From an uncultured Actinomycetota bacterium (GTDB lineage Bacteria; Actinomycetota; Actinomycetes; Propionibacteriales; Nocardioidaceae), in contig CAWFVO010000001.1 in assembly GCA_963819295.1 (NCBI GenBank), positions 29,080 to 93,079 of the forward strand: 64,000 nt of DNA, written 5' to 3'. Within the stretch, counting starts at the first letter, position 1; every line of letters begins with the position of its first letter. Under the pieces are notes generated by a model. It saw only the letters and a program-made list of their open reading frames with translations, searched no databases and had not been told where the DNA came from. Below are positions 15,414 to 59,969 of this stretch, piece by piece. A program made the position numbers and the translations under genes.

Positions 15414-15415
15414 CG

Positions 15416-23151: not shown

Positions 23152-23214
23152 ACAGGTCCAGCGCGCCACGGGCAAGCTCGGCCGCAGCCGCCAGCTCCTC
23201 GAGCCGGTCAGAAG

Positions 23215-24048
23215 CTACCGGTTCGACCCGCCATCGTCCTCGACCGCGGCGGCGATCGGCTCGAGTCCCGCGATCAGCTCGTCGAGCTCGTCAGCGCTGA
23301 GCACGTCGTACGCCGGGGCCGCAAGCTCGTCGGTGAGGGCCTCGATCCGCTCCCGGAGCTCCCGGCCGGCGTCGGTGAACCCGCCCGCGGTGTCCACGAG
23401 GCCGCGGCCGCGCAGCCCGTCGACGACGGCGGTCAGCTGTGCCTGGGGCAGGTGGTGGATCCGGCCGAACTCCTCCGCCCTCATCCCCAAGGAGAGAGCC
23501 ATGAGGACGTGGGCCTCGCTGCCACCGATGCCGTGGGCGACGAGGACGGCGTTGTGGCCGTCCCCGCGGTGCTCACGCAGCAGCGTCGCCGCGTGCCAGA
23601 GCCTGGCCACCGGTTCCTGGGGCACGTCGAGCGCCCGGAGTCCGGCGTACAGCACCCGGCCCTCGGTCGGTGCGCTGACCGCTGCTCGGGTGGCGAGGTC
23701 GGCAACCCGCACCAGACCGGGGGAGTCGGCGAGCTCCCCGATCTCCTGCCGCAGCGCGGCGGCGCTGCCCCGCTCGCGCACGGCGATCGCCTCCTCCGGG
23801 GTGGTCTTCCCCCAGACCCACGGAATATGGCGCGCCACCTCGCCGTCGGCGAAGTTGTAGAAGACCGCGTGCACGACCTCAGCCGGTGCGAGTCCGAGCG
23901 GCGCGGCTCGGCCCGCGAAGTAGCCGTCCCAGTAGGTGCGCATGCCGAGGGCCAGGAACGCCTCGTTCGGCACCTCGGAGAAGGTGACGGTGGCGATCGG
24001 CTCGACGAGCTCGAACACGCGGCGGACCTGGGGCTGGCGGTGCGGCAT
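23215..24048 (-). CDS. SCO6745/SalK-like protein with C-terminal MarR-like winged helix
   Basis: 'GYFAGRAAPLG', 'LWHAATLLREHRGDGH', 'ERIEALTDELA'. Confidence 0.85.
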   Translation of the reverse strand: MPHRQPQVRRVFELVEPIATVTFSEVPNEAFLALGMRTYWDGYFAGRAAPLGLAPAEVVHAVFYNFADGEVARHIPWVWGKTTPEEAIAVRERGSAAALRQEIGELADSPGLVRVADLATRAAVSAPTEGRVLYAGLRALDVPQEPVARLWHAATLLREHRGDGHNAVLVAHGIGGSEAHVLMALSLGMRAEEFGRIHHLPQAQLTAVVDGLRGRGLVDTAGGFTDAGRELRERIEALTDELAAPAYDVLSADELDELIAGLEPIAAAVEDDGGSNR

Positions 24049-24178
24049 CGGTCGGCATCTCCTGTTGGTCGTGACGGCCCCCTCGTCGGAGGCCTCTCAC
24101 GCTACCTACGAACCACGTGGCCCGAGTTCGACAGCTTGGCGCACCGTGTTCATCGGGGCGGGTTCGCGAACCCGGGGC

Positions 24179-25144
24179 TCAGGTGGCGGCCGGAGACACC
24201 TGGTGCAACCAGTTGATGAGGATCTCGTTCACGGGCGCCGGGCGTTCTTCCTGCACCCAGTGTCCGCAGCCGGCCAGAATGTGGCTGCTGACCAGTCCGG
24301 GCATGGTCGACGAGAATCCATCGATCACGTTCTGGATCCACCCGGCAGACGCATCGAGGGCGCCGCCGACAAAGAGGGATGGCTGCGTGATGGCCGCACC
24401 GTCGTATGCGGCAAGGTCCTCCCAATCCCGGTCGACGTTGCGATACCGGTTCAGCGCTCCGACGAAACCGGTCCGTTCGAACTCCTCGACGTACACGTCC
24501 AAGTCGCTCTCGCTGAGCCACGCCGGCAGCTCGCCGGAGACGAACCGGTCCCGCATCCGGGCTCCCGGTGGAATGTAGAAGACGTGGCTGGCACCTTCGG
24601 ATGGCCTGGTGTCTCCCGACAGGCTCGCGTAACAGCCCCGCAGCCACCCCCGGACATCGGGCTCGATCTCTGCTTCGGCGCGGCCGGGCTGCTGGAAGTA
24701 GCTGATGTAGAACTCGGCGTCTCCGCCCGCGTGCGCGAAGACCTCGCTCGGGCGGGGTCCGCTGCGAGGTGTGTAGGGAGCGCTCAGCGTGGCCACCGCG
24801 ATGAACGTGTCTGGTCGAAGAAGCGCTGCGTTGGCCGCGATCAGTGACCCCCAATCATGTCCGACGACCGCGGCGGTCGTGGCACCCAGCGCATGGACCA
24901 GGCCGACGGCGTCAGCGACCAGCTCCACCATCCGGTACGCCTCGACGTTCGCGGGCTTCGACGACCGGCCGTATCCACGTACGTCGAAGGCGACCGCGCG
25001 GTACCCCGCGCTTGCCAGCGCAGGCAGCTGATGACGCCATGCGTACGACGTCTCCGGGAACCCGTGGATCAGCAGCACCAAGGGGCCGTCGCCCTGTTCC
25101 ACCACGTGCAGTCGGACATCCCCGAGTACCACGCCGTGTCTCAT
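24179..25144 (-). CDS. Epoxide hydrolase (alpha/beta fold, EphA/EphB-like)
   Basis: HGFPE, 'RGYGRS', nucleophile GHDWG, Tyr residues in 'FYISYFQ' and 'LNRYRN', 'CGHWVQEERP'. Confidence 0.9.
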   Translation of the reverse strand: MRHGVVLGDVRLHVVEQGDGPLVLLIHGFPETSYAWRHQLPALASAGYRAVAFDVRGYGRSSKPANVEAYRMVELVADAVGLVHALGATTAAVVGHDWGSLIAANAALLRPDTFIAVATLSAPYTPRSGPRPSEVFAHAGGDAEFYISYFQQPGRAEAEIEPDVRGWLRGCYASLSGDTRPSEGASHVFYIPPGARMRDRFVSGELPAWLSESDLDVYVEEFERTGFVGALNRYRNVDRDWEDLAAYDGAAITQPSLFVGGALDASAGWIQNVIDGFSSTMPGLVSSHILAGCGHWVQEERPAPVNEILINWLHQVSPAAT

Positions 25145-30320: not shown

Positions 30321-31904
30321 GTGCTGAAGTTCTTCATCATCGGGATCCTGCTGGCCCTGGGTGGCCTGACGACGCTGGCGGCCGCCATCGGTGGCGCGGG
30401 GTGGTGGGTGCTGCTCGTCGTCATCGTTCTGGTGCTGCTGCTCGGGATCCATGACGTCGTACAGCGGCGGCACTCGATCCTGCGCAACTATCCGGTGCTG
30501 GGCCATCTGCGCTTCCTGATGGAGGACGTGCGCCCGGAGTTGCAGCAGTACTTCATCGAGCGGAACTGGGACGGTCGGCCCTTTGATCGCGACACCCGTT
30601 CGTCGATCTACCAACGAGCCAAGAACATCAAGGAGGAGCAGCCCTTCGGCACCGAGCGAAACGTCGACCAACCAGGATATGAGTACCTGGTCCACTCAAC
30701 CCGGCCGGTGGATCCTGCTCCCGAGCCGCCGCGGGTCCTGATCGGTGGACCGGACTGCAAGCAGCCGTACGCGATGGCCCTCATGAACGTCTCGGCGATG
30801 AGCTTCGGCGCGATCAGCGCGAACGCCGTACGGGCCCTCAACCAGGGTGCTGCCAAGGGTGGTTTCGCGCACGACACCGGCGAGGGTGGGCTGAGCAAGT
30901 ACCACCGCAGCGGCGGTGACCTGGTCTGGGAGCTTGGGTCGGGCTACTTCGGCGCGCGCACGAAGGACGGCGACTTCGACCAGGAAAAGTTTCGCGACAC
31001 CGCCGCCGATCCGCAGGTCAAGATGACGTCGCTCAAGCTCAGCCAAGGCGCCAAGCCGGGCATCGGTGGGGTGCTCCCCGGCGCGAAGGTGACCCAGGAG
31101 ATCGCGGACGCGCGCGGGGTCCCGAAGGGCGAGAAGTGTGTCTCGCCCAGTGCCCACAAGGTGTTCTCCACCCCACGTGAGCTCGTCTTGTTCATGGCTC
31201 GGATGCGTGAGCTCAACGGCGGAAAGCCGGCCGGCTTCAAGCTCTGCCTGGGCTCCCGTGCCGACTTCCTGGGCATCTGCAAGGCGATGGTCGCCGAAGC
31301 AGTGACTCCGGACTTCGTCATCGTCGACGGCGGTGAGGGCGGCACCGGTGCAGCCCCGCTGGAGTACGAGGACCATATCGGCACACCGCTCACCGAGGGG
31401 CTGCTCAACGTCCACAACTGCCTGGTCGGCGTCGGCCTGCGCGACCAGGTCAAGGTCGGGGCCAGCGGCAAGGTCGCCAGCGGGATCGACATCGTCAAGC
31501 GGATCATCCAGGGCGCCGACTACACCAACTCCGCGCGGTCGATGATGATGGCCGTCGGCTGCATCCAGGCCCAGACCTGTCACACCAACACCTGCCCGGT
31601 CGGTGTCGCCACCCAGGACCCCCGCCGCCAGCGCGCCCTCGACGTCGCCGACAAGACGGAGCGCGTCTACCACTACCAACAGCAGTGCCTCCAACAGGCG
31701 CTTCAGGTCATGGCCTCCTTGGGTGTGCACGGTCCCGAAGGTCTCCGGCCACACATGCTTCGGCGCCGCGTCGACCACGACGACGTCCGTTCGTACGCCG
31801 AGATGTTCCATCACCTCGAGCCCGGCCAGCTGTTGGCCGACCCACCCCCGGGCCGCTGGGCCCGTGACTGGGCACTCGCGGACCCCGACCGCTTCACCGT
31901 CTGA
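30321..31904 (+). CDS. FMN-binding glutamate synthase family protein (stand-alone, membrane-anchored)
   Basis: 'SAMSFGAIS', 'DTGEGG', 'KLSQGAKPGIGG', 'DGGEGGTGAAP', 'CIQAQTCHTNTCPVGVATQ'. Confidence 0.95.
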   Translation: MLKFFIIGILLALGGLTTLAAAIGGAGWWVLLVVIVLVLLLGIHDVVQRRHSILRNYPVLGHLRFLMEDVRPELQQYFIERNWDGRPFDRDTRSSIYQRAKNIKEEQPFGTERNVDQPGYEYLVHSTRPVDPAPEPPRVLIGGPDCKQPYAMALMNVSAMSFGAISANAVRALNQGAAKGGFAHDTGEGGLSKYHRSGGDLVWELGSGYFGARTKDGDFDQEKFRDTAADPQVKMTSLKLSQGAKPGIGGVLPGAKVTQEIADARGVPKGEKCVSPSAHKVFSTPRELVLFMARMRELNGGKPAGFKLCLGSRADFLGICKAMVAEAVTPDFVIVDGGEGGTGAAPLEYEDHIGTPLTEGLLNVHNCLVGVGLRDQVKVGASGKVASGIDIVKRIIQGADYTNSARSMMMAVGCIQAQTCHTNTCPVGVATQDPRRQRALDVADKTERVYHYQQQCLQQALQVMASLGVHGPEGLRPHMLRRRVDHDDVRSYAEMFHHLEPGQLLADPPPGRWARDWALADPDRFTV

Positions 31905-31914
31905 GAGGACGAGC

Positions 31915-33640
31915 ATGACCACTGTTGCCGAGCTGCTCATCCAGTCGTTGGCCGACTACGGCGTGACCCAGGTCTGGGGAGTCGTGGGCGACGCCCTCAA
32001 CCCGGTCACCGACGCCATCCGGCAAGAGGAGCGCATCGAGTGGATCGGCGTACGCCATGAGGAGGCCGGAGCCTTCGCGGCCAGCGCCCAGTCCCAGCTG
32101 ACCGGACGGCTCGCCGTCTGCATGGGCACCGTCGGACCGGGGGCCATTCACCTGCTCAACGGGCTGTACGACGCCAAGAAGAGCCACACGCCGGTGCTCG
32201 CCGTGCTCGGCCAGGTGCCGCGCGAGGAGCTGGGGAGCGACTTCTTCCAAGAGGTCGACAACGACGCGCTGTTCTCCGACGTCGCGGTGTTCTGCCAGAC
32301 CCTGACCAGCGTGGACCAGCTCCCGCTGATCCTCGAGCAAGCGGGTAACGCCGCGCTCCAGGAGAGAGGCGTCGCGGTCCTGACCCTGCCCGGCGACGTC
32401 GGCGGCCTGGACCTCCCCAAGCACACCGGCGTACCCCGCTTCGTCGAGGCGCGGCCTCAGGCCGTGCCGCCCGACGATGCGCTCCGCGCGGCTGCCAAGG
32501 CGATCAATGGCTCAGGTCCGGTCACCCTGCTCGTCGGTCAGGGCGCCCGTGAGGCCCGCGACGAGGTGATGACCCTCGCGGAACGGCTGAACGCCCCGAT
32601 GGTGCTGACCCTCAAGGCCAAGGAGGGCTTCGACGACGACAATCCCTACGAGGTCGGGCAGTCCGGCCTGATCGGCAACCACGCAACGACGATCGCCTTC
32701 GACGGGTGCGACACGCTCGTGCTGATCGGCACCGACTTCCCCTACCGGAACTTTCTGCCGAAGGGGAAGACGGTCGTCCAACTCGACATCCGAGGCACCC
32801 ACATCGGGCGGCGTACGCCGGTGGACCACGCGCTCGTCGGCGACGCCCGTCTGGGACTGCTGGCGCTTCTCCCGATGATCGACCCGCAAACGGACACCGC
32901 GCTCCTGGAGAAGGCGCGATCCTCCTACCGCCATTGGCAGGCGCGGCAGCGGAAGCTCGCCGACCCCGCGTACGAGGCCAAGCCCACGGGACTCCTGCGA
33001 CGGAAGATCGACAACCCCGAGTCACGGATCCGGCCAGAACTGGTCGCGGCGACCGTCGACCGGCTGGCGTCGTCCGACGCGATCTTCACCACGGACACCG
33101 GCATGTCCACTGTCTGGTTGTCGCGGTTCGTCCGGATCACCGCCGCCCGGCGGCTGATCGGCTCCTACAACCTCGGCTCCATGGCGAACGCCATGCCCCA
33201 GGCCCTCGGTGCCCAGGGCCTCGACCGCACCCGCCAGGTGGTCGCCTTCTGCGGCGACGGCGGTCTGTCGATGTTGATGGGCGACCTGATCACCGCGGTC
33301 AGCCACGACCTGCCGGTCAAGCTCGTGGTCTTCGACAACGGCCGTCTCGGCATGGTGAAGCTCGAGATGGAACAGGTCGGGCTACCCGAGTTCGGGACAG
33401 TTCTCCACAACCCTGACTTCGCCCGCGTCGCCGACGCCATCGGTATGAAGGGGATCCGGGTGGAACGGCCGGACGGCGTCGAGGCCGCCATCAGCGGCCG
33501 CATTCGCTCACGACGGGCCCGCTCTCGTGGACTGCATCACGAACGCCGACGAGATCGCCATCCCCCCGAAGCCGACACTCGAGCAAGGCTGGGGCTTCGC
33601 GATCGCCAAGACTCGCGAGTTCATCGACAGCGCTGAGTGA
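31915..33640 (+). CDS. poxB: ThDP-dependent pyruvate dehydrogenase (quinone)/pyruvate oxidase; frameshift near 33500
   Basis: 'GVVGDALN', 'RHEEAGAFAA', 'GPGAIHLLNGLYDA', 'GSMANAMPQA', 'GDGG...DNGRLG'; last ~45 codons in a shifted frame ending at 33640. Confidence 0.88.
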
Positions 33641-36801: not shown

Positions 36802-39800
36802 ATGGCCGCGGCCGAGGTGACAAGCGACGTCAGACGATTCCTTCTGCCCTACGTCCCGGGGCTGCTGCTGAGCTGGGCGCCCACGGGCCAGGACGCCCGG
36901 CACCTGCGAGTGACGGGCACCCTCGCGTTCGTCGACATCTCCGGCTTCACCCGCCTGACCGAGCGCTTGGCCCGCAAGGGCAAGGTCGGTGCCGAGGAGA
37001 TGAGCGACATCCTCAGCGCGACGTTCGCCGGCCTGCTCACCGAGGCCCGAGATGACGGCGCAGATCTTGTCAAGTGGGGCGGCGACGCGATCCTGCTGCT
37101 CTTCGAGGGGCCAGACCATGCCCTGCGGGCGGCACGTGCGGCGCACCGGATGCGCGCGGCCCTGCGCGTCATCGGGCGGGTGCCGACCACGTCGGGCAAC
37201 GTCACGTTGCGGATGTCGGTAGGGGTCCACAGTGGTGACTTCGACTTCTTCCTCGTGGGTGACCCCGACATCCACCGGGAACTGCTGATCAGCGGCCCGG
37301 CGGCCAGCGTCACAGCCGACACCGAGGCGGCGGCAGCGGCCGATCAGATCGGGCTCAGCCGGGCGACCGCCGCGCTGCTCGAACCCCAGCTGCTCGGGTC
37401 GCCGCTCCTCGACGGTCGTCTGTTGCGTACGGCGCCGGTGCTCGCCGACGTCCCGGCCGTCACCGATCACACGTACGCGACTGATCCCCTGCACGTGCTG
37501 CCCCCGCCGATCCGAAAGCATCTTCTCGACGGCACGGTGGCCCCGGAGCACCGGCTGATCACGGTGGCGTTCGTCCAGTTCTCCGGCACCGACGAACTGC
37601 TCCTGTCCGCCGGCCCGACGGTCCTCGCCGACGCGCTCGACGAGGTCGTGCGCAACGTGCAACGGGCCTGCGCCGACCACGACGTCACCTTCTTCGAGAC
37701 CGACATCAACCGCGACGGCGGCAAGATCATGCTGACCGCTGGGGCTCCGCGCAGCGCCGACCACGACGAGGAGCGGATGCTACGAGTCGCGCGCGTCGTC
37801 CTCGACCGCGCCGGGCGGCTCCCTTTGCGGATCGGGATCAACCGTGGCCACGTCTTCTCGGGCGACTTCGGGCCCTCGTTCCGGCGTACCTACTCCGTCA
37901 AGGGTGACGCCATCAATCTCGCGGCGCGGGTGATGGGGAAGGCAGCTCCCGGGCAGGCACTCGCGACGCTGGAGGTCGTGGCACGGTCGCAGACCGAGTT
38001 TCGCACCACGGAGCTACCGCCCTTCGTCGTCAAGGGCAAGACCGAGCCGGTGCATGCAGCCGCGATCGGGGCCCTGGTCGGCCAACGCTACGACGACCTG
38101 CACGCGTCGCCGCTGGTCGGGCGAGCGGAGGAGATGGCGTTCCTGGGCGATGCTCTCGACCAGGCGCGAGCCGGCCACGGAGGGTTGGTCGAGATCGTCG
38201 GAGACGCGGGCATCGGCAAGTCCCGCCTCGTCTCCGAGCTGCTGACCGGCCTGGACGACGTCCGGGTCGTCTCGGCGCCCTGCGAGCAGTACGAGTCGTC
38301 CACGGCGTACTTCCCCTTCCGGCGCCTGCTCCGGGGCGTGCTCGACGTACCGGCCAACGCCGACGCGCAGGACGTGGCGGCTCGGCTCGTCGACCAGGTC
38401 TCGCGTTGATGCTCCGCACCTCCTGCCGTGGGTGCCCCTGCTGGGCATTCCGCTCGACATCGCTCTTCCTCCGACGCCCGAGTCCGACGAGCTCGGCGAA
38501 GCCTTCCGCAAGGGCCGCTTGGAGGAGGTGCTGATCGAGCTCCTCGGCTACCTGACCCCAGGCCCCACCGTGCTCGTCATCGAGGACGCGGAGGTGATGG
38601 ACGACGCCTCGGCAGCGCTGCTGCAGCAGCTCGTCGACCGGATCGGCGACCGGCCGATGCTGGTGGTGGTCACCCGACGTGACCAGCCGACCGGCTTCGT
38701 GCCCGAACCCGACGGCACCTTCTTGTCGCTGCGGCCGGCACCACTCGACGCGGCCACAGCCGTCGCCCTGGTCCAGGTGGCCCTCCACGACCATCCCATG
38801 ACGCCCCAGGCGCTGTCCGCGCTGGCCCAACGCGGCGGTGGCAACCCGATGTTTCTCGAGGCCCTGGTGACCGAGGCTGCCCGGTCTGCACCTTTGGAGC
38901 AGCTGCCGGCGTCGGTCGAGGGTCTGGTCACCAGCCAGATCGACCGGCTGGACCCGGCAGACCGGACGGTGCTCCGATACGCCGCGATCCTGGGGATCGT
39001 GGTCGACGAGCGTGCCCTCGACACGCTGCTGGATGAGCATGACGCGCGGGTCCCGAGTGGTGCGATGGACCGGCTCGGCGCCTTCCTGATGCGGGACGGA
39101 CCTGGCCGGATCCGGTTCCGCAACGTGCTGATGCGCGACGTCGCCTACGAGGGTCTGCCCTACCGGCATCGGAAGATGCTGCACGACAGGGTCGGGCTGA
39201 CCATCGAGCGAGCGACCGAGAATCCGGAGACGCAGTGCGAGCTGCTCTCCCTGCACTTCTTCCACGCCGGGCGGCACGAGCGGGCCTGGCGCTACTCCGT
39301 CCTCTCCGGCGAACGCGCGCTCGCGAAGTTCGCCCACGGCGAGGCCATCGAGTTCCTGGCCCGGGCCACCCAGTCGACCCAGCATCACGGCGAGGTGCCG
39401 CCGGCGGAGCTGGGCCGCGTCTACGAGCTGCTGGCCGACTCCCGCTGGCTGGTGGGTCTGCCGAAGGGCGCCGCCGAGGCGTACGCGCAGGCGCGCAGGT
39501 ACCTGCGAGGAGACCCGGTGCGGCTGGCCGGCATCATCGAGAAGGAGGCACGGATCGACCAGCGCCATCGCAAGCACAGCCTGGCGATGCGTCGCATCTC
39601 GCGCGGTCTCGGTGACCTGGAAGGGGTCCCCGGACGCGAGGCCGCCATCGCCCGGTCACTCCTTTCCCGGCGGTATGCCCACAGCCGCTTCAGCCAGGGC
39701 CGCACCGACGAGGCGCTGCACTGGGCGGACCGGGCCGCGGACGAGGCGGAGGAGGCCCTCGACAAGGACGCCCTGGCGCAGGCGTACGAGATGCTGAACG

Positions 39801-40597
39801 CGATCTACGCCGGATCAGGTCGCGACGAGCCGCTGCCCTACGGCCGACTTGCCCTGCAGGCCTACACCGAGCTGCGCAACCTGCCGCGCCAGGGCCACTG
39901 CCTCAACAACCTCGCGACGCAGGACTACCAGGCCGGACGCTGGAACGAGTCGCTCGACAACCTGCGGCAGGCCACCGACATCTTCCGCCGCATCGGCGAC
40001 ACCGCATCGGAGGGCAACGCCAGCTACAACCAGGCCGAACTCCTGATACGCCAGCGTCGGTACGACGAAGCAGGTGCCCTGCTCCCCGAGGTCCTGCGGA
40101 TCGCCCGAGCGGTCGAGGACGAGGAGCTCGCCGCCCTGGCGCACCGCGAGCTCGCACGTGCCCTGGCGGGGTCCGGAGACCTCGACGCAGGGGTGGCGAT
40201 GCTGGCGGAGGCGCGGAGCCTCTTCGAGTCCCTCGGGGAGGACGGTGAGGTGCTGGCCACCGATCTGACGAGGGTCGAGGTCCTGCAGGACGCCGGACAC
40301 GCGGACGAGTCGACCGAGATCCTCGAGCGGCTGACGACCGGGGACGACGGCACCGTCGACGCCGCACTGCACCGCCTGATCGCGCGCCAGCACCTCGTCG
40401 AGGGACGGCTCGACGAGGCCCGGTTGATGCTCCACGCCGGGCTCGACGCGGCCGAGCGGGAGTCCAACCGTTACGAGCAGGGGATGCTGCTGGCCGAGTC
40501 CGCAGCCCTGGCCCGGCGCGAGGGCTCACCCGACGAGACAGCGCAACGCCGTGCCGACGAGATCTTCGACTCGTTGGGAGTGGTGGAGCGATCCTGA
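36802..40597 (+). CDS. Tandem class III nucleotidyl cyclase - STAND AAA ATPase - TPR protein (frameshift near 38405)
   Basis: C1 'FVDISGFT...KWGGDA'; C2 'GDAINLAARVM'; Walker A GDAGIGKS; Walker B 'VLVIEDAEVMD'; STAND GxP 'GGNPMF'; 'FRNVLMRDVAY'; C-terminal TPR-like repeats. Confidence 0.92.
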
Positions 40598-40612
40598 GGT
40601 CGCCGACGTGCG

Positions 40613-41629
40613 TCAGCCGACGCTGGTCCTCATGTCCTGGTCGAAGAGCAGGTACAGGATCGTGTCACCGGAGTTGTCCCGCTTGCTCTGCACGTAGTCC
40701 ACACACGCGTCCTGGCCGGCACCGATGGTGTTCTTGGCCGGGCACGCGTCGGCAAGGCCCAGCGCGGTGTTGCCGCCGAGGGAGAACGACAAGTGAACGT
40801 TCGAGATCGCGCCGCCGCCACACAGGGACTTGTCGCACTTGACGACGAGAGTGGCAGGCGCCGTCTTGGTGTAGCCCAGCCCGGAGAGGTCCGCCAGTGC
40901 CTGCACGACCGCGCCCTTGTTGCTGCCGCAGGCGGCGTACGTCGGGTCGCAGGCGCCGAGGGCCAGGAGCACCTGGGAGCTCGCACCGAAGGGCAACGAG
41001 AGGACTCCGCACACGGGTCGGGCCGCGGTCGCGTTGCTGCACGTGTCGTCGTCGCCGCCGATCCCGGACGAGCCACCGGCGGCCACCGTCGTCGGTGTGT
41101 GCAGCTCGGAGAGCACGTCGAACCGCTGGTCGGGGATCTGGCTGCCGTCGATGAACGTGAAACCCGAGGTGCCGTCGCTCGACGTGGCGCTCAGCCCCTT
41201 GGACTGACCGCTGGCGACCTTCACCGTGACCTGGACCTGGTTGGCGGCCGTGCCGAGGCTGGTGGTGATGTCCGCGGAGGTCGCGCCCTTCAGCGCCGTG
41301 CCGGTGGCGGGAGAGAGTGCGCCCCGGTTGCTCGAGATCGACAGCGTCGTGTTGGTGTTGAACGACGCCGGCGCCCCGGTGGCGTCGTAGAAGCTGACGT
41401 GGACCGTGAAGGATCCGCCGGCCTGGACCAGCACATACGGCACCGCTCCACCCGGAGTGCCGACCGGAGCCGTGGTGCCGGACTCGATACCGGTCAGCAC
41501 CATCTTCACCGGGGTAGTCGGGCTCGCCGCAGTCGCGGTGGTCGTGACGATGCCTGCCAGAGCGGCAGCCAGGCAGCCGACGAGAACCAGCAAGAAGAGG
41601 CGCCAACGGGACGTGGACTTGTGGGTCAT
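40613..41629 (-). CDS. Secreted Cys-rich hypothetical protein
   Basis: Signal peptide 'MTHKSTSRWRLFLLVLVGCLAAALAGIVTTTATA'; Ig-like Thr/Ser/Gly-rich N-half; 8 Cys in the C-half. Confidence 0.8.
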   Translation of the reverse strand: MTHKSTSRWRLFLLVLVGCLAAALAGIVTTTATAASPTTPVKMVLTGIESGTTAPVGTPGGAVPYVLVQAGGSFTVHVSFYDATGAPASFNTNTTLSISSNRGALSPATGTALKGATSADITTSLGTAANQVQVTVKVASGQSKGLSATSSDGTSGFTFIDGSQIPDQRFDVLSELHTPTTVAAGGSSGIGGDDDTCSNATAARPVCGVLSLPFGASSQVLLALGACDPTYAACGSNKGAVVQALADLSGLGYTKTAPATLVVKCDKSLCGGGAISNVHLSFSLGGNTALGLADACPAKNTIGAGQDACVDYVQSKRDNSGDTILYLLFDQDMRTSVG

Positions 41630-41830
41630 CAGCCATCGTTTCTCTAGGTGGCCGAGAGCCTGCACCAGCCTGGGGTGATGACGGCGAAGGGTCAATGAGC
41701 CGTCTCGGCCAGGGGCACGGGCGTTCGGCACGCCGTCGGGTCCCTCGGAATGCGGCGCCTCAACATCCACAACGGTGGCGGGGCGTGGCTCACTACGTGA
41801 GCCACCCGTCGTGTCAGTAGGCTCCGGGTC

Positions 41831-44800
41831 GTGTGGGGGAACCGGGCGGCGCGCGTGCCCGCGTCTCGGGTCCTGCTCGTCGCCTCGTTCGGCGCCTTCC
41901 TGGCCTTCCTCGACGCCACGATCGTCAACGTCGCCTTCCCGTCGATCCGGGCATCGTTCCCCGGCACGACGATCAGCAACCTGTCGTGGGTGCTCAACGC
42001 CTACAACATCGTCTTCGCGGCGTTCCTCATCGTGTGCGGGCGGCTCACCGACCTGCTCGGACGGCGTCGCGCCTTCGTGGCCGGTGTGGTGGTGTTCACG
42101 GTCGCCTCGGCTCTGTGTGGTCTTGCGCCCTCGGTCGCCCTGCTGGTGGCGGCACGGGTGTTGCAGGCCCTGGGTGCCGCGCTTCTGGTCCCGGCGTCGC
42201 TCGCCCTCGTCGTGGAGGCGTTCCCCGAGGAGCGCCGGGCACACGCCATCGGCCTGTGGGGCGCCACCGCGGCCCTCGCGGCCGGCCTGGGTCCGCCGCT
42301 GGGCGGCGCCCTCGTCGAGCTCGGTGGATGGCGATGGGCCTTCCTGGTCAACATTCCCTTCGGCGTGGTCGCCATCTGGTTCGCACGTCGTCAGCTCGTC
42401 GAGAGCCGCGCCCCCGGTCGTCGTACCGTGCCCGACCTGCGCGGCGCGGCCCTGCTGGCCGCGGCCCTGGCCGCCCTCAACCTCGGCATCATCAAGGGCA
42501 GCGACTGGGGTTGGAGCAGCGCGGTCGTCATCGGATCGTTCGCGGCCGGTGCAACGCTGACGGCGCTGTTCGTCCTGAGCTCGCGAAGGCACCGCTCGCC
42601 TCTCCTGGATCCCGCGCTGCTGCGGATCCCGTCGTTCAGCATCGCGTCGTTGGCCACTCTGCTGGCGGGGATCGGCTTCTACTCCTACCTGCTCACCAAC
42701 ATCCTCTGGCTGCGATACGTCTGGCACTACAGCGTTCTCAGTGCCGGCCTGGCACTGGTGCCCGGCGCGCTGGTCGCCGCGGTCGTCGCGGCCCGGCTCG
42801 GACCTCTGGCCGATCGACACGGTTACCGGCCCTTCGTCGTCCCCGGTGCACTGGTCTGGGCGGGGGCCTACCTGTGGTACCACCAGCAGGTGGGCCTCGT
42901 GCCCGCGTTCTGGACCGAGTGGTTCCCCGGGCAGGTGCTCAGCGGCATCGGTGTCGGCGCGACCCTCCCGCTGCTGGGCAGCGCCGCACTCGCCGCCGTC
43001 CCGGGCGGTCGCTATGCCACTGCCTCCGCGGTGGTGTCCAGCGTCCGCCAGCTCGGCGGCGTCCTGGGCATCGCGATCCTGGTCGTCATCCTCGGCGACC
43101 CGACCCCGCTCACTGCGGTCGCCGCGTTCCACCACGGATGGGTGCTGGCCATCTGCTCCTTCCTGGGCGTGGCGGTGGTGTCGCTGCCACTGGGACGCCT
43201 GAGCGGCGCGGTCCACGTGGACAGCGGCGAGGACGAGCGGCCACCGACGGTCCATCCGCCCCTGCGCGACGATGCCCGTCCGGCCGGTGCGACGGTGGCG
43301 ACGCCTGACAGCACCGATCTGACCGACCTGCCGCTGCTGGCTGCGCTGCCGGTCGAGGCGCGCGCTCGGCTGGCGGCCGCCGCTCGGCTGGTGACGGTGC
43401 CGGCCGGGAGCGAGCTGATCCGCGCCGGCGATCCGGCCGGTTCGGCGTACGTCGTACGCCGGGGGCGGCTCGAGGTCGAGGTCGACGGCCATCTGGTGCG
43501 TGAGCTCGGCCCGGGAGCGATCCTCGGTGAGCTGGCCCTCCTGACCGGAGAACGCCGCTCGGCCACCGTGCGGGCGCGCCGCGACTCGACCGTGCTGGAG
43601 CTGCCGCGCGGCGCCTTCGAGGACCTCCTCGCGACCGACCCCACGGCCTCCCGGCTGGTGCTGACCCAGGTCGCGGAGCAGCTCCGCACCGCCGGTGGTC
43701 CGGCGAAGAAGATCCAGCCGGCCCAGCCGACGGTGATCGCGGTGGTCGGCCTCCACCCGGGGGCGCAGGCGGCCGAGGTGGCGGACGTGCTCGGGCGGCG
43801 CCTGTCGACGCACCTGCGCGTCGCGATGCCCGGAGTCGTGAGCCCGGACGGTCTCGCCCGGGCCGAGCAGGACCACGACCGGGTACTCCTGGTCGCGGGA
43901 AGCACGCACGACCCGGCCCACCCGGGCTGGCGCGACTTCTGCCTCCGTCAGGCGGACGCCGTCGTCCTGGTCTCGCACAGCGACGTCGCTGTCCCAGAGG
44001 AGCCCGTGACACCGGCTCCTCTGCGCCAGCCCGACCTCATACTTCTCGGGCGCGGCGCCCGCCGACCTCGCGTCGTGGGCGGCGGTGACCGACGCGTGGC
44101 AGGTGACGGTGGTGGAGGGGGACTACGCCCTCGGCGTACGCGCGACTGCGGACCGACTGGCCGGCCGCTCACTCGGGCTGGTGCTGGCGGGTGGCGGCGC
44201 ACGTGCCTTCGCCCACGTCGGAGTCCTGCGTGAGCTGGAGGACCGCGGCCTGCACGTCGACCGGGTCGCCGGCAGCAGCGTCGGCGCGATCATCGCAGCC
44301 ATGCATGCCCTCGGTCACGATGGTGAGTGGCTCGAGGAGGTCCTGTACGCCGAGTTCGTACGCCGCACACCGTTCTCCGACTGGGGCCTTCCTACCGCGT
44401 CCCTGGCCAGGGGCCGACGCATGCAGGAGGCGGCGACGCGCACCTACGGCGACACTGTGTTCGAGGGTCTGCCTCGCCAGCTCCACATCGCCACTACCGA
44501 CCTGGTCAGCCGCACGAGGCAGGTTCATCGGCGCGGAGCGGTGAGTCGGGCGGTGGTTGCCTCGGCGCGGCTACCGATCCTGTTCGCGCCGATGCCCGAC
44601 GACTCCGGACGGCTGCTCATCGACGGGGGTGTGCTCGACAACCTGCCGGTCGACCTGTTGACCGAGCGCGATGAGGGACCCGTCGTGGCCGTCAACATCG
44701 CGATGGGTGGCGGTGGCGGCGGCGGGCGGGTCCCGCGGATCGGACGCCCCCGAGTACCTGCCCTGGGTGAGACCCTGCTGCGCACGATGATGATCGGCAG

Positions 44801-45077
44801 CGGCGGCGCCGTCGCGTCGGCTCGAACCGAGGGCGCATGGGTCGTCACGCCGCCGACCCTGGGGGTCGGACTCCTGGAGTTCCACCAGCTCGACCGGATG
44901 ATCGCGGCCGGCCGGTTGGCGGCACGCGCCCTGCTCGAGCAGGCAGGGAACGACCTCGGGGCCTTACCGGTCGCGCCCGCAGGGAACGACCTCGGGGCCT
45001 TGCCGGTCGGGCAGTCCGGGCACGATCCGGAGCCCGAGCTTCCGCCGCCCCGACCGACGGCGCTGGACCAGGTCTGA
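41831..45077 (+). CDS. DHA2 MFS transporter - cNMP-binding domain - patatin phospholipase fusion (Rv3239c/Rv3728-like; frameshift near 44060)
   Basis: MFS motifs 'LDATIVNVAFP', 'GRLTDLLGRR', 'WRWAFLVNIP'; cassette 'GELALLTGERRSATV'; NTE-like 'WRDFCLRQAD'; patatin GGGARA, GSSVG, DGG. Confidence 0.92.
44943..45009 (+). repeat. Tandem duplication with a 36-bp period near the 3' end of the patatin fusion
   Basis: GCAGGGAACGACCTCGGGGCCTTRCCGGTCG at 44943 and 44979, encoding AGNDLGALPV twice. Confidence 0.9.
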
Positions 45078-45078
45078 G

Positions 45079-45909
45079 CTAGGAGGGTCGGGCGACGTCG
45101 ATGGTCATCCCCTCGCGGGCGACCACGACAGGGGGGCCCGCGTCGAGGGTCCGCGCCCAGGCCGCGATCTCGTCGAGCGCCTCGTCGGTGCGCGCCGGCG
45201 AGTGGTGGAAGAGGAACACCGAACCGGCGTCGCACTCGCGACCGAGCTTGATCGAGTCCTCGACGGTGGCGTGGCCGTACTCGACCGCGACCCGTCGCTC
45301 ACCCTCGAGGAACTGCGCGTCGTGCACGAGGACGTCGACACCGGACAACGCCGACTTCAGCTCGTCGGACACGCCGGCTGCTGGCGCGTGGTCGGGCAGA
45401 TAGGCCAGCGAGCCGCGCTCGTCCTCGATCCGCAGGCAGAACGTGCGCCCTCCCTTGTGCTCGATGTCGACCGTGGTCACCGCGAAGCCTTCGATCCGGT
45501 GCGACCCCTCCTCCAGTGCATGGAACGTCCAGGCGCCGTGGAGGCCCTCGGGCGTGATCGGGAACGAGGGCGGGGAGAACGAGCGCGCCAGCAGGTCGCG
45601 ACCGGACTGATGGTCCTGGGCGGGCAGGTAGACGTCGACCCTGGCGTCGTCCCTGTCCCCGGCGGCGAAGAAGGGGAGCCCCTGCACATGGTCCCAGTGG
45701 AGATGGCTGAGGACGATGGAGCCGTTGAACGAGGTTCCGCCCAGCATCGACGTGAGCGAGCGGAGGCCGGTTCCGGCGTCGAGGACCAACGTCGGCACAC
45801 CACCGCCGTCGGGCGTGATGGCGAGGCAGGACGTGTGCCCGCCGTAGCGAACGAAGTCGGCCCCCGGCGCGGGTGTGGACCCACGAACACCGAGCAGCTG
45901 CACCCTCAC
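45079..45909 (-). CDS. MBL-fold metallohydrolase, RNase Z / cyclic-nucleotide phosphodiesterase-like
   Basis: 'GVRGSTP', 'GGHTSC', 'LDAGTG', 'SHLHWDH', 'DAQF', 'GHAT', 'FHHSP'. Confidence 0.9.
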   Translation of the reverse strand: MRVQLLGVRGSTPAPGADFVRYGGHTSCLAITPDGGGVPTLVLDAGTGLRSLTSMLGGTSFNGSIVLSHLHWDHVQGLPFFAAGDRDDARVDVYLPAQDHQSGRDLLARSFSPPSFPITPEGLHGAWTFHALEEGSHRIEGFAVTTVDIEHKGGRTFCLRIEDERGSLAYLPDHAPAAGVSDELKSALSGVDVLVHDAQFLEGERRVAVEYGHATVEDSIKLGRECDAGSVFLFHHSPARTDEALDEIAAWARTLDAGPPVVVAREGMTIDVARPS

Positions 45910-49642: not shown

Positions 49643-49912
49643 CGATGAGCCTTTCTCGAAGCGGTACAGGCTTCGAACCCACCAGTTGACCACGACAACA
49701 AGTCGCACGATGCGAGTCATGCGGATGTCTGATCGGTGAACAGGAGGGGCGGCGTCGTCGTCGGTCCCGAGCCCCGAACGTCCCCGCCGGCACGTGGGTG
49801 CGCTCGCCGACGACTGGTCAATTCGACGTAGTGCCGCTCACCCTTCTGGACGACGACCAGGGCCCGGGCCGTTCCTAGGTTGAAACGACACCGCGCTATC
49901 CGGGGGGCATCC

Positions 49913-51824
49913 ATGTGCGCGTCTGATCGCACTGTCCACGTCGACCCGTCCCAGGCGGTCCCCGGAGGGGATCGCTTCAGGGTCCCGAGCTTCGCCGTGC
50001 TGGTGACGTCGAGCCTGGTGGCCGCCGTGGCCACCGTCGTGCCGGCCGCCCCGGCACTCGCGAGCACGACGTACCTGGTCCGCCAGCACGACCCGCACTG
50101 CTCGAACACCGGGCCGGGCAACACCACCAGGCCGTTCTGCACGATCTCCGCGGCGGCTGGCGTGGCTGTTGCGGGCGACACCGTCCGCGTCGGCGCGGGG
50201 ATCTACCGCGAACAGGTGACCGCGCCCAGCGGGGTGAGGTTCGTGGCCCCGAACAGGTCAGCCCAGGTCGTGGGCTCCGACAGCCTCGCGTCCGCATCCT
50301 GGTCTGCCGCCGGAGGCCACGCGTGGTCCACGGTGCTCGGTGCCACCACCGGGGTGTCCCGGGTGCTCAGTGGTAGCACCCGGCTGACCCGGACCACGGG
50401 GGTCAATCGGACCGGGACCGGCAGCTGGTTCCTCGACGCGACGTCCCACAGGCTGTACGTCGACCTGGGCGGACCGGCACCCAGGGCCGGCGATGCGCTC
50501 AAGGCGGTCGTGCGGCAGTACGGGTTCCTGGTCCGCGACGACCACGACGTCACCGTGGAGGGTTTCACGATGCGCGGCCAGGGGGGAGCGGGCATCCTGC
50601 TGGACTCCTCCACGCACTCCGTGGTCCGTGACGTGTCGGTGACCGGGTCGGCGTCGTACGGCATCAACGACCAGAGCGGCACCAGGGACAGGATCATCGG
50701 AGCGCACGTCAGCCACAGCGCCTCGATCGGCATCCGGCTGATCGATACCGCCTCGAGCTCGGTGACCTCGTCGATCTCGAGGTGGAACGGGTTCCATGGC
50801 ATCAGCGTGCAGGGGGGATCCAGGGCCCATGTCGGCCGAAACGTCACCACCGGGAACATCACCCCCGGGGTCCGGCGGGCCGCGGGGATCGACATCAGCT
50901 CGGCCTCGCTCGACGCCCTCGTCGAGCGCAACGTCAGCCACGACAACGACGACTCCGGCCTCGAGATCTACACAGGCTCCGTCGGTGCCCTGGTGCGCCG
51001 CAACGTCACCTACGACAACGGAGACCACGGCATCGACATCTCCGCGTCGGGCCATGCGACCGTGGTCTCCAACACCTCGGTCAGCAACTCTGCCGCGGGC
51101 GTCAACGTCGAGGGAGGGTCAACGGGGACGACGCTGCGCGACAACATCTCGGTCAACGACGCGGTGGGCAGCCCCCGCAGCAAGGGCGGTATCAGGGTGG
51201 ACGCGGCATCCGTGTCGCACACCTCGATCGACCACGATCTGGTCTTCCAGTCCCACCGGGGCACGCCGCGGTTCGAATGGCACGGTGTCGGGTACCGGCG
51301 CCTCGCGGGCCTCCGTAGAGCAACGAACCAAGAGAAGCACGGGCGCGCAGCCAACCCGCGGTTCGTTGCTCTCCGGGCCCGGAACCTGGAGCTCGGACCG
51401 TGCCTCCCCGGCCCTCGACGCTGCCGACTCCAGGGCTCCGGGATGGGGCGCCCGCGACCAGACCGGTGCCCGTCCCGTCGACGCTCCCACGGTCGCCGAC
51501 ACGGGTGTTGGACCGGTCAGGTACGCCGACCTGGGCGCGCTGGAGCGGACTCCTCCCAGGGCCAGGCTCCACGTGGCCCACCGCGTGGTCCTCGTCGGTC
51601 GGCCCGATCGCGCAAATGCCTCGGCCTCGACCGGTACCGCGCACTCGCACATCGTGCGGTACCGGTTCAAGTGCGGGGCGCAGCACGCCACCCGCTGGCA
51701 GAGGACACGCACGAAGATGTGCGTCTTCCACCGGCCGGGCCGGATCCGAGTCTCGGTGTGGGTACGCAGCAACCTCGGACTGGTGGACGGCGCCTTCCGC
51801 CGGGTGACAGTGCGCCGCAGGTGA
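49913..51824 (+). CDS. Secreted right-handed beta-helix protein with C-terminal PKD-like domain (frameshift near 51400)
   Basis: 'PFCTISAAA', 'GDTVRVGAGIYRE', PbH1-like repeats 'NVSHDNDDSG', 'NVTYDNGDHG'; shifted frame continues 'SPALDAA...DLGALE' to the stop at 51824. Confidence 0.8.
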
Positions 51825-52011
51825 CTGACGTGATCAGCTCACCCCGCCTTCTGCCCGGCTGCGAGCCGGCGCCGGGTGCTCCCGGCCGGGTCCCGCGACC
51901 GCTCACCAGGCCGGCCCACAAGACCTTGGGTCCTTCGAGGGATGGTTCCCTCGCGCGGCACGAGGGCGCATGGTTGGGACGGGCCCTGTGACAGTTCCGG
52001 GGGGTGAACGC

Positions 52012-55821: not shown

Positions 55822-55836
55822 GTCTCAATGTGAGAC
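55822..55836. promoter_or_regulatory. GTCTCA-N3-TGAGAC palindrome, copy 1 (overlaps the regulator stop codon)
   Basis: GTCTCAATGTGAGAC, identical to the copy at 58150-58164. Confidence 0.7.
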
Positions 55837-57648
55837 GTCCGAAGCTGCAGCGGGCGGCACGATCCCGTAGTCGTGGATCTTGCGGTAGATGGTTGCCCGG
55901 GACATCCCGAGTGAGCGGGCGGCGTCGGTCTTGCTGCCGTTGGCCTCGCCGAGGCACTTGACGATGGCGTCGCGCTCCATCGCTTCGAGGGGGCTCAGCA
56001 GCCGTCGGCTCACAGCATGCACCTCGGGGGGAAGATCCTCCGGCTTGATGCACCCGCTGCGACGGTGCTTGACCACTTCGAGCAGCAGGTCGTGAAGCTG
56101 CTGGGCGTTGCCCGGCCAGGACATGCGCATCAGGAGTCGCATTGCCTCGGGGGAGCAGGTGAGGTGGCGCCCCTGGCCCAGCCGCGACAGGAAGACCGGG
56201 ACGAGCAGCGGGAAGTCCTCCAGGTGCAGCCGCAGCGGCGGTAGCTGGACCGTGCTGGGGAACAGTCGCAGCAGTGGTTGCAGTGAGGCGTTGGCTGCTT
56301 CGCTGGCGAGAGTCACTGCCACCCACGGAGGTGTTGCACGGCTGGCCCGCGCTTCCTCCAGGGCGGCCGCGAGGCTGCGCAACGCGGGAGCGCTGAGCTC
56401 GTCCACGTGCCGTATCACGACTGTCTCTGCCTCACCGAGCAGCGTGTCGCGTGCTGCTGGCAACCAGGCGGAGTCGGTGGCCGCATCTCGCGCCTCGAGG
56501 AGCTCGAACCGCCCGATGGGCTGGCGGCGCAGCTGCACGGCCCGCAGGACCGCAAGCTTGCCGACGCCGGGCTCGCCCTCCACGACCAGCCACTCACGCG
56601 ACCGGAAGATCCGCTCCACCTCCTGGCAGGCATGCAGCCACGGCGGACCCGTGCCCACGAGGCTCGGGAGCGGCATCTGGTTCGTGGCCGTCGCTCGGGG
56701 GCCATGGCTGGTTCTCTCCTCCATGACGACATGCGCGACGATGCCTGAGCTCGGCTCGGCGCTGCCGACGCGTCGGCAGTACATCCGAGCGGTCAGACCA
56801 GAGGACAGCTCGATCAGACGCGTGCCGCGACGTCCTGCCGACATCGCGTCGGCCGCCTGCGCCAGAAGCGTCGACTGGTCGGCCGGCGTGAGCGAGGCTC
56901 GGGCATGGTCGTTCAACATGACCACATCGCGGTCGAGCGCGAGAACGATCCCGGTCGTGCGACTGCAGGTCCGGATGTACTCCTGGAAGAGCTCGAGCTG
57001 GGACGCGCTCGCATCGGCGAGCAGCGCCTGACGGATCTGCTCGGCGGTTGTCTTCGCCAGGGTCAGCAGCAACGACCCCGCGTCCTTGCGCCAGCAGGTG
57101 AGGTCCACGGCGCCTACCAGCCGCCCGGTGACCGGATGGTGAATCGGCACTCCGGCGCAGGCGAGATCTTCGAGGTTCTCGGCGTAGTGCTCATGTCCGA
57201 ACACATGGGTCGGGCCGCCGACCTCCAGAGCGGTGCCGATACCGTTGGTGCCCACCGACTTCTCGGCGTAGCTGAATCCGGGCGCCAGCAGGACTCGGTC
57301 GAGATGACGCTCGAGATCACCGTCCCCGGTCAGCCGACTGAGCACCACCCCGGCATGGTCGGTGAGGATGACACTGACCGACTGGCCTTGGAGCTGCTCG
57401 CTCAAGCTTCGCAGAACGGGTAGCGCGCTCCTGGTGAGTCGCGTGTCGAGGTGGATGTCGGGCTCGAAGATCATCTCGATCTTGTCCGCCGCGACGCTCA
57501 GGTCCGCCGACCGCCGCCAGGACGCGAGAATGGTGTCTCGAACGGTCCGCGGCTCAGGCGTCTCCTCGGTCAGGAACCGGATCCGGCTCTCAGCCACTAC
57601 TTTCTGGGCAGGTATCACCGCCCTGCTCGAGTTCGGAGTGGGCGTCAA
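55825..57648 (-). CDS. GAF - AAA+ - Fis-HTH transcriptional activator (MimR/AcoR-like)
   Basis: 'ILASWRRS', 'VGTNGIGTAL', Walker A GEPGVGK, 'WPGNAQQL', 'AARSLGMSRATIYRKI'; no GAFTGA; GGAGG RBS before TTG; divergent from prm. Confidence 0.92.
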   Translation of the reverse strand: MTPTPNSSRAVIPAQKVVAESRIRFLTEETPEPRTVRDTILASWRRSADLSVAADKIEMIFEPDIHLDTRLTRSALPVLRSLSEQLQGQSVSVILTDHAGVVLSRLTGDGDLERHLDRVLLAPGFSYAEKSVGTNGIGTALEVGGPTHVFGHEHYAENLEDLACAGVPIHHPVTGRLVGAVDLTCWRKDAGSLLLTLAKTTAEQIRQALLADASASQLELFQEYIRTCSRTTGIVLALDRDVVMLNDHARASLTPADQSTLLAQAADAMSAGRRGTRLIELSSGLTARMYCRRVGSAEPSSGIVAHVVMEERTSHGPRATATNQMPLPSLVGTGPPWLHACQEVERIFRSREWLVVEGEPGVGKLAVLRAVQLRRQPIGRFELLEARDAATDSAWLPAARDTLLGEAETVVIRHVDELSAPALRSLAAALEEARASRATPPWVAVTLASEAANASLQPLLRLFPSTVQLPPLRLHLEDFPLLVPVFLSRLGQGRHLTCSPEAMRLLMRMSWPGNAQQLHDLLLEVVKHRRSGCIKPEDLPPEVHAVSRRLLSPLEAMERDAIVKCLGEANGSKTDAARSLGMSRATIYRKIHDYGIVPPAAASDVSH

Positions 57649-57787
57649 TCCAATCCTCCAACATCTTCTCCGGGCTTCTCACCGTTGCGGGCCGGGACTG
57701 GACGCGGCAGCCGAGGTCCGAGGCTGTGCTCTCACGATAGGTGCTGCTCAGTACTGGGTCGAGTGTCGCTCGGACGACGCCGACGGG

Positions 57788-57815
57788 CTGTCTCAGAATG
57801 AGACAGCGATGTCTC
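57788..57815. promoter_or_regulatory. GTCTCA-N3-TGAGAC palindrome, copy 2, with an extra half-site
   Basis: CTGTCTCA-gaa-TGAGACAG followed by cgaTGTCTC. Confidence 0.8.
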
Positions 57816-57885
57816 GAGGCGGGCGTAGCGTCCAACGTATCCCGACCGACGAACCGTAGCCGGCCCACATCTGCGGAGGTTCGAC

Positions 57886-58134
57886 ATGAGTTCAGCGCAT
57901 GACGCGGACGTCGAGAGCTACAACCCCTGGAGTGTCGTGAACCTGGTCTTCACCCATCTCTCGGACCAGGGACTGCATCCGATCCTCGGCGAGAGCGGTG
58001 ACCCCGGTGCGCCGGCAGCGGCCCTTCTCGTGGCGCTCGGGATCGAGCCAGCGCCCGAGGGCAATCGCGAGGTCATGAGAGATGTCCGGGCACACCTCGC
58101 CGAGATTCGCGAGGCGATGTTCGAGAGCGAGTGA
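57886..58134 (+). CDS. Small acidic hypothetical protein (82 aa) upstream of prmA
   Basis: GGAGG RBS, ATG, coding-like codon usage. Confidence 0.75.
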
Positions 58135-58149
58135 GCGGTGCCTCGCACC

Positions 58150-58164
58150 GTCTCAATGTGAGAC
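58150..58164. promoter_or_regulatory. GTCTCA-N3-TGAGAC palindrome, copy 3, upstream of prmA
   Basis: GTCTCAATGTGAGAC about 65 nt before the prmA start. Confidence 0.8.
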
Positions 58165-58229
58165 CCGTCACCGCTCCTCGAAGGGCTTTGATACAGACGG
58201 AACTACTCGACGGACAGGAAGGAGTGGTG

Positions 58230-59882: not shown

Positions 59883-59901
59883 CCGCGCACACGAGCTAGG
59901 A

Positions 59902-59941: not shown

Positions 59942-59969
59942 GTCTCAGGGGTCGAACTGGAAGGGAGCC

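Follow-up and report, generated by a model that had tools for sequence, protein, structure and literature searches.

Class III nucleotide cyclases assemble their active site from paired domains, which between them contribute the metal-binding aspartates and the base pocket and transition-state residues. TPR regulators of the RRNPP group (Rap-Phr, PlcR-PapR and NprR-NprX) sense peptides, and peptide-binding TPRs keep conserved Asn and Lys/Arg columns. A cyclic nucleotide monophosphate (cNMP)-binding domain joined to a patatin is found in Mycobacterium tuberculosis Rv3239c/Rv3728 and in NTE/PNPLA6-type proteins. Human soluble adenylyl cyclase (sAC, ADCY10) continues into a STAND NTPase and helical repeats, and we take its bacterial sAC-like STAND relatives to be the proteins called 'SWACOS'. 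The tandem C1 and C2 domains of ADCY10 form a pseudo-heterodimer with one complete site (PDB 4CLF/4CLW). Here, we describe a module of four adjoining genes in a 64,000-nucleotide stretch of DNA (the window) from an uncultured Nocardioidaceae bacterium (GCA_963819295.1, contig CAWFVO010000001.1, positions 29,080 to 93,079), which encode a cyclase–STAND–TPR protein, a secreted protein, an MFS–cNMP–patatin protein and a metallo-hydrolase. These parts very probably constitute a writer–reader–eraser set, and it is an evenly balanced proposition that the whole is a modular circuit in which the ADCY10-like cyclase senses its own secreted partner and makes cyclic UMP (cUMP), with a reader and an eraser at hand.

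In the accessible parts of PMC11224242 and PMC10118264, dedicated bacterial signalling by cUMP and cyclic CMP is described from Pycsar phage defence only. BcPycC, a Pycsar clade B uridylate cyclase (PDB 7R65), recognizes UTP through Tyr50, Asp94 and Arg97, and PycTIR reads uracil through Asn143, according to PMC11224242. The Asp94/Arg97/Tyr50 triad has been modelled to exclude guanine in the Pucsar preprint (bioRxiv 10.64898/2026.08.12.744502), whose predicted immune clade also takes in some STAND-fused cyclases.

The window cyclase begins with two tandem class III domains, of which C1 bears the metal Asps and C2 the N..R motif, and continues into a STAND ATPase and TPRs, as in full-length ADCY10. 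Its structural model (pLDDT 92.7) has human sAC as the best solved relative by both sequence and fold, with a Foldseek TM of 0.80 (E 8.5e-29) against 0.59 for PaPycC (6YII). Residue conservation was counted in a profile alignment of the best 150 representatives at 50% identity. Since Asp45 and Asp95 of C1 and Arg376 of C2 are invariant (150/150 each) and Asn372 of C2 is retained in 147/150, one catalytic site looks complete, C1 giving the metals and C2 the base pocket and transition-state residues. Two further residues are shared with ADCY10: Lys91 (146/150), which corresponds to sAC Lys95, and Ser/Thr at residue 365 (145/150), which corresponds to Thr405. Lys95 and Arg176 of sAC form its bicarbonate site; the Arg176 position (residue 172) is Val in 90 and Ala in 46 of the 150, and bicarbonate activation was dismissed because this position is not retained.

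The base pocket departs from that of ADCY10. At position 299, which corresponds to the canonical base-selecting Lys/Glu position (Lys334 in sAC), Gly occurs in 51, Glu in 46, Ala in 35 and Ser in 10 of the 150 representatives, and Lys is not among the six commonest residues listed (Gly, Glu, Ala, Ser, Asp and Tyr, covering 148/150); the window cyclase has Glu, and Glu299 is paired with Lys367 in 38 of the 46. Phe336 of sAC is replaced by an invariant Asp301 (150/150), Ser343 by Lys308 (143/150, with Arg in 4), and the pocket residue Phe257 is invariant (150/150). The 7R65 sequence reads Tyr93-Asp94-Gly95-Asp96-Arg97-Val98-Met99, with Asp94 at −2 and Arg97 at +1 of the metal Asp96, and has Ala at the canonical Lys position. 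In the window C2, Thr-Asp301 is followed by a 4-residue hairpin insertion and Gly-Gly-Lys308-Ile-Met, which sets Asp301 and Lys308 at the −2 and +1 positions. In sequence register, Phe257, Asp301 and Lys308 occupy the positions of BcPycC Tyr50, Asp94 and Arg97, and this register agrees by two routes, the comparison of C2 with its own C1 and the strand limits of the model. The 7R65 numbering was carried over through an actinobacterial PycC homologue, and the C2 profile gave no direct match to 7R65 among the best 60 of 69 matches. The window family thus shares with BcPycC (PMC11224242) an aromatic/Asp/basic triad, frequently a small residue where canonical cyclases have Lys, and a nearby cNMP-binding effector with a membrane domain, but the scaffold is different, being tandem, STAND–TPR-fused and 1,260 residues long instead of a 229-residue homodimer. 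Since C2 has the Asn/Arg and a BcPycC-like Asp/Lys pocket and C1 has the metal Asps, the product is predicted, with slightly better than even confidence, to be cUMP or another cyclic pyrimidine and not cAMP or cGMP.

Several variants of the cyclase were seen. A branch of seven loci (L043, L056, L065, L074, L076, L078 and L079) has Ala for the catalytic Asn372, with Arg at position 308 in six and Lys in L043; several of them adjoin giant secreted proteins, two of these with a PxKF C-terminal domain, and the branch possibly represents a weakened or altered cyclase. Distant tandem cyclases at L121 and L122 (genomes G202 and G099) carry Phe-Arg instead of Gly-Lys in the hairpin and adjoin 2,470-2,490-residue proteins (PD40, PKD and a weak Peptidase_C25) and cNMP-binding genes. 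A close BcPycC relative (E 2e-64 to 7R65) is encoded in an actinobacterial genome at L124:1495-2190.

The secreted partner has a signal-peptide-like N-terminus, an invasin-type Ig domain (residues ~41-175; Z 8.7 in a model of pLDDT 93.6) and a Cys-rich C-terminal domain (residues ~178-338, 8 Cys). No Pfam, NCBIfam or PADLOC family matched it, and 170 homologues were found among 7,993 scored candidates, the 120 listed being all unnamed or hypothetical. Foldseek by itself gave no clear fold for the C-terminal domain, and the nearest named Atlas cluster for one homologue (P0024) is ZU5 (0.87). Asp332, which lies 7 residues from the C-terminus just before the last strand, is invariant in the partner family. 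A terminal Asp motif is present in 35/36 close partners and in 14/19 convergent genes at distant cyclase loci, where it reads Asp-(x)-Pro/Arg/Lys and is probably due to chance in one of the 14, against a background of 129 in 865 open reading frames (ORFs).

The TPR region of the cyclase has several conserved Asn and Lys/Arg columns, including an Asn ladder. As in RRNPP regulators, such a TPR adjoins a secreted gene, and the partner C-terminus is conserved and co-diverges with it; unlike them, the partner is a folded 338-residue Ig protein and no short pro-peptide, and the output is a nucleotide cyclase. Across 37 intact loci, the distance between partner C-terminal domains correlates with TPR distance (rho 0.80) more strongly than with cyclase (0.39) or STAND distance (0.37), and the partial correlations are 0.76 for TPR versus −0.03 for cyclase, with 0/1000 permutations; nearest neighbours agree with those of the partner in 18 loci for TPR, 14 for cyclase and 18 for STAND. 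This co-divergence fits receptor–ligand matching, and would be expected equally if the two neighbouring gene ends were transferred together. Several observations speak against such matching: the 3' ends of the TPR and partner regions adjoin in the DNA, so that shared recombination blocks alone could yield the correlation; kin among the loci do not count as independent; export is predicted for the partner but a cytoplasmic location for the TPR sensor; close and distant partner domains match weakly as profiles (hhalign P 12%, E 0.0025); and the resemblance of the Cys-rich domain to ankyrin ZU5 (3UD2) is weak too (Z 7.6, below 8; root-mean-square deviation 3.6; 119 aligned residues; model 146-306). 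PMC3482391 describes the ZU5 domains of bacterial surface proteins as autoproteolytic and as bearing a CxH motif; the last domain of the partner is weakly like such ZU5/GAIN domains, but the C-terminal CxH (or HFS) cleavage motif is absent from the partner family. On balance, it is about as likely as not that the TPR reads the C-terminal domain of the partner. Two tandem copies of the partner gene stand behind one cyclase at L021:13755-15902 and G076:C6:80757-82898, whereas at some loci, L012 among them, the partner gene is upstream.

The putative reader is a DHA2-type MFS protein (its homologue L008 scores above the TIGR00711 cut-off) joined to a cNMP-binding domain and a patatin in which the motifs GGGxR, GSSVG and DGG are intact. 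Rv3239c/Rv3728 have the same order. The literature, as far as it was accessible, treats these mycobacterial proteins mainly as efflux pumps, whereas the window gene adjoins a candidate writer and a candidate eraser. Three reader architectures recur beside the cyclase, namely MFS–cNMP–patatin, MFS–cNMP and cNMP–cNMP–patatin, and at L143 and L144 the patatin appears there in an MFS-less form, a cNMP domain followed by patatin. The C-helices of MFS–cNMP proteins next to canonical-Lys cyclases are of one type (3/3) unlike that of most found beside Asp/Lys cyclases, the numbers being small. The window genome (G000) has four further MFS–cNMP genes, at C1 ~117800-119400, C11 ~407100-408700 and ~733800-735400, and C12 ~23050-24640, none of which adjoins a cyclase match.

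The hydrolase has a metallo-beta-lactamase fold of the RNase Z-like group with the HxHxDH motif; phmmer against the PDB found three RNase Z chains only at E≤0.01, and a match to NF041851 (cyclic nucleotide-degrading phosphodiesterase) is weak (39 bits, cut-off 400). It is predicted to be a cNMP phosphodiesterase on the basis of gene neighbourhood, not of a family cut-off. Neighbourhoods were examined for 10 of the 15 off-module hydrolases: nine have a class III cyclase (6), a cNMP-binding protein (5) or both beside them, and the tenth adjoins a GGDEF gene; the hydrolases closest to that of the window (62-76% identity) are those adjoining the tandem cyclase. An earlier note, made from the letters of the window alone, had likened this protein to Apyc1. 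Fold and motif are common to both, but no Apyc1 protein is among the PDB matches, which are to RNase Z as described, and the gene is a host gene tied to cyclases and not a phage counter-defence gene. Members of the family mark zinc-ribbon cyclase–STAND, receiver–cyclase and MFS–cNMP loci (L104, L105, L107-L113), and the one at L106 adjoins a GAF–PAS–GGDEF gene.

The distribution of the four genes was examined in a cyclase-centred set of 79 loci, drawn from the best 80 of 160 matches, 67 of which have at least 9.2 kb downstream; in an unbiased draw of 200 genomes of the window's family, searched for each gene; and across the phylum, including 20 distant loci. These samples overlap partly, and kin within them are not independent. 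All four genes stand together in 15/79 loci, the C-terminal domain of the partner is found in 54/79, MFS–cNMP–patatin in 24/79, a separate MFS–cNMP gene in 20/79, any cNMP-binding domain in 44/79 and the hydrolase in 27/79; the partner is also present in 24/24 patatin loci. In the family draw, 14 genomes have the cyclase and 9 the partner, all of them cyclase genomes, with the two genes adjacent in 8; in G084 each lies on a short contig of its own. A quick tree built from 61 cyclases requires 12 changes of the patatin label, at least 7 of them forced by strong branches. The C2 profile matches in 34/300 genomes across the phylum, among them 11/17, 9/15 and 6/9 in three families that belong to other classes than the window. 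A convergent gene lies within 400 bases of the cyclase in 19/20 distant loci, the annotated ones being mostly Ig-domain genes (Big_1, DUF11, fn3, SdrD), and the examined stretch contains a reader in 3/20 and a hydrolase in 1/20. Among neighbours, scanned at 12/20 loci, nadE stands beside the cyclase in 8 loci of one family, six of which are also near glnA. Therefore, the cyclase and the secreted protein are the stable core, to which readers and eraser are added as exchangeable accessories, and the window has the full set. The earlier note had proposed a self-contained four-gene unit and a neighbourhood analysis of it: the joint occurrence of all four genes stands, and so does the writer–reader–eraser logic, which the neighbourhoods support from both the cyclase and the hydrolase side, but self-containment gives way to a modular arrangement with at least seven gains or losses of the patatin and few readers in other classes.

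In the proposed circuit, the TPR region would detect the C-terminal domain of the secreted partner. The preferred route, itself tentative, is that a clip near the conserved terminal Asp frees a 6-8-residue tail, which returns into the cell and docks in the TPR groove. Binding of the tail would release the STAND switch, the cyclase would make cUMP, cUMP would switch the membrane MFS–patatin protein, and the neighbouring metallo-hydrolase would destroy the messenger. The circuit probably responds to kin or surface state by controlling transport and remodelling lipids or the cell surface, and does not drive cell suicide. The window genome has seven other cyclase matches, and since four of them keep the canonical Lys motif, a private nucleotide may be useful in insulating this channel from the other cyclases of the genome.

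Part of the evidence weighs against cUMP as the messenger. The Asp/Lys match consists of two residues set across an insertion, in a scaffold that is not closely related to PycC, and Asp plus Lys could also read guanine. The best solved matches of the reader cNMP-binding domains are PKG and PKA domains, and the equivalent of PycTIR Asn143, the cUMP signature, is absent from every listed reader cNMP domain. The same hydrolase and MFS–cNMP families also accompany single-domain canonical-Lys cyclases and therefore point to no single nucleotide. It is thus possible, though rather unlikely, that the same circuit runs on a purine messenger, either cGMP or cAMP read through a non-canonical pocket, with the Asp/Lys pair reading guanine or being merely structural. 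The sAC scaffold, the Thr405-like residue 365 and the presence of Glu299 at the Glu position of guanylyl cyclases (in the window and in 46/150) agree with a purine as well. However, Glu299 is variable whereas Asp301 and Lys/Arg308 are conserved, Lys is missing from the residues listed at 299, and the Asp/Arg pair of BcPycC was modelled to exclude guanine in bioRxiv 10.64898/2026.08.12.744502.

The earlier note had also suggested a defence role with Pycsar-like and Avs-like components. An NLR/Avs-like anti-phage system, in which the TPR would sense a phage product or guard the secreted protein and a cNMP-activated patatin would kill the cell, is improbable. The STAND–TPR architecture and the Pycsar-type pocket are suggestive of it, patatins are generally known as CBASS effectors (PADLOC matches here are weak and partial), the cyclase is patchy in the window's family (14/200), and the immune clade predicted in the Pucsar preprint contains some STAND-fused cyclases. 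PADLOC gave only partial domain matches on the module, including weak ones to PycC (34 and 23 bits) and PycTIR profile matches covering the cNMP domain only; the PycC profile PDLC02367 has no match in the window genome at 1e-25, and no Avs family matched the intact homologue L007 at E≤0.001. No defence system was found by PADLOC among 50 flanking ORFs, which gave generic HTH, ABC and AAA matches only, and a defence island was dismissed on this ground; the recurrent neighbours of the module are metabolic genes. Unlike Pycsar, the module lacks PycTIR and PycTM and has a predicted eraser, and many loci have no toxic effector nearby. Since the cyclase is prevalent and fixed in site in some families and is accompanied by this eraser, we favour ordinary signalling over defence, and the module is neither Pycsar nor Avs, its hydrolase being probably distinct from Apyc1. 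Least probable is a loose cluster, in which the cyclase and the secreted gene are a true pair and the MFS–patatin and hydrolase genes belong to a general cAMP network that gathers near any cyclase. Readers and eraser have been gained and lost repeatedly and the window genome has MFS–cNMP genes away from the locus; moreover, only 2 of the 4 MFS–patatin genes and 2 of the 17 hydrolases in the family draw, the latter being the two closest, are adjacent to the cyclase, which also tells against the circuit as a fixed assembly. The adjacency of precisely the closest hydrolases to this cyclase, the recurrence of three reader architectures and, in small numbers, the C-helix difference argue against such a cluster.

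Tandem ADCY10-type architecture, an altered base pocket and the link between TPR and secreted protein are what this analysis adds to the earlier note. Unlike ADCY10, the cyclase has a secreted protein as its partner and readers nearby. A more speculative synthesis, which is rather doubtful as a whole, is that ADCY10-like STAND receptors, widespread in actinobacteria, independently gained a Pycsar uracil pocket and use cUMP as an everyday non-defence signal, with the TPR matched to a secreted protein that processes itself and releases its tail as a kin-specific ligand, with interchangeable transporters and phospholipases, gated by cNMPs, as the outputs, and with a phosphodiesterase dedicated to reset. 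If so, cUMP would be a regulated, erasable messenger with a candidate family in 34/300 genomes of the phylum, the MFS–cNMP(–patatin) proteins would have a writer and a ligand class, and there would be a bacterial model for ligand switching of the STAND–TPR half of an ADCY10-type cyclase. Known relatives exist for all of the parts, and the strongest new claim, which could go either way, is cUMP from an ADCY10-type receptor outside Pycsar. In line with the earlier note, which knew of no description of the unit, the open-access literature yielded no account of the four-gene module and none of an sAC-like STAND cyclase with a UTP-type pocket, most subscription journals lying outside this scope.

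The features of the locus are listed in Table 1. The four genes form two convergent pairs, whose stop codons are 15 nt (40598-40612) and 1 nt (45078) apart as first read from the sequence, and the motifs quoted at that time (FVD, GD, N..R, GSSVG, DGG and HxHxDH) were all located, together with Walker A and Walker B. GC content is level across the module. The −35-like element recurs in most of 14 aligned loci, as judged by eye. A perfect 9-bp inverted repeat with a 3-nt spacer lies at 41785-41805 upstream of the MFS gene, and its conservation is absent across 13 homologous regions.

Table 1. Coordinates of the module in the window.
Feature	Position	Strand	Remarks
Cyclase–STAND–TPR gene	36802..40597	+	Pfam Guanylate_cyc x2, AAA_16, TPR_12; intact relatives ~1,260 aa
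C1 domain	36913..37400	+	Metal Asp45, Asp95; Lys91
C2 domain	37543..38046	+	Asn372, Arg376; pocket Phe257, Asp301 (codon 37702), Lys308 (codon 37723)
TPR sensor region	39215..40597	+	Asn ladder and Lys/Arg conserved
Secreted protein gene	40613..41629	-	338 aa; no Pfam family
Intergenic region between divergent genes	41630..41830		TTGAC-type −35-like element toward secreted gene
MFS–cNMP–patatin gene	41831..45077	+	Pfam MFS_1, cNMP_binding, Patatin; intact relatives ~1,050-1,100 aa
Metallo-hydrolase gene	45079..45909	-	Pfam Lactamase_B_2; HxHxDH plus later His/Asp ligands

The window genome comprises 26 contigs and is 84% complete, and its closest named loci are from Nocardioides and Marmoricola. 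Both long genes are split by frameshifts, the cyclase at 38405/38406 and the MFS gene near 44048, with one extra base each. Contigs from three independent DNA runs (X1, X2 and X3) have one base fewer at the first break, those from X2 and X3 otherwise differing by just 1-2 letters over 234-262 bases; at the second, one base fewer is seen in a single contig of one run (X1). When the assembly was probed with 223 intact ORFs taken from three relatives, 69 conserved genes were well covered, and 11 of them have breaks, 13 in 82 kb (0.16 per kb), so that ~1.1 breaks are expected in the 7 kb of the two long genes and 2 are observed. The isolate loci L007, L012, L013, L034 and L054 have the cyclase as a single ORF of 1,239-1,266 residues. 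Since the run contigs lack the extra base, frameshifts occur in other conserved genes of the assembly and the isolate homologues are single ORFs, the extra bases in both genes are most likely assembly errors, the second on thinner evidence. Genuine pseudogenes were dismissed for the first break, and probably for the second, on the run contigs and the frameshift rate. Two RNA runs, which are duplicate filings of a single data set, yielded contigs of relatives only, mostly 90-95% alike. A one-contig genome with all four genes (L116, G127:C1 ~4159440) has a frame break within the cyclase C2 domain.

Elsewhere in the window, ORF tails at 31603-33636 (a TPP enzyme) and 49880-51991 (a beta-helix protein) look out-of-frame, which fits further assembly indels. 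A broken T2SSF-domain gene and an A24 prepilin peptidase at ~15000-20500 are suggestive of a Tad/Flp pilus locus. A soluble di-iron monooxygenase cluster (hydroxylase subunits, reductase, MmoB/DmpM and amidohydrolase) occupies 55828-64000 together with a divergent GAF–AAA–Fis activator, and at 61246-62601 hydroxylase and coupling protein lie in one ORF, perhaps through a frameshift.

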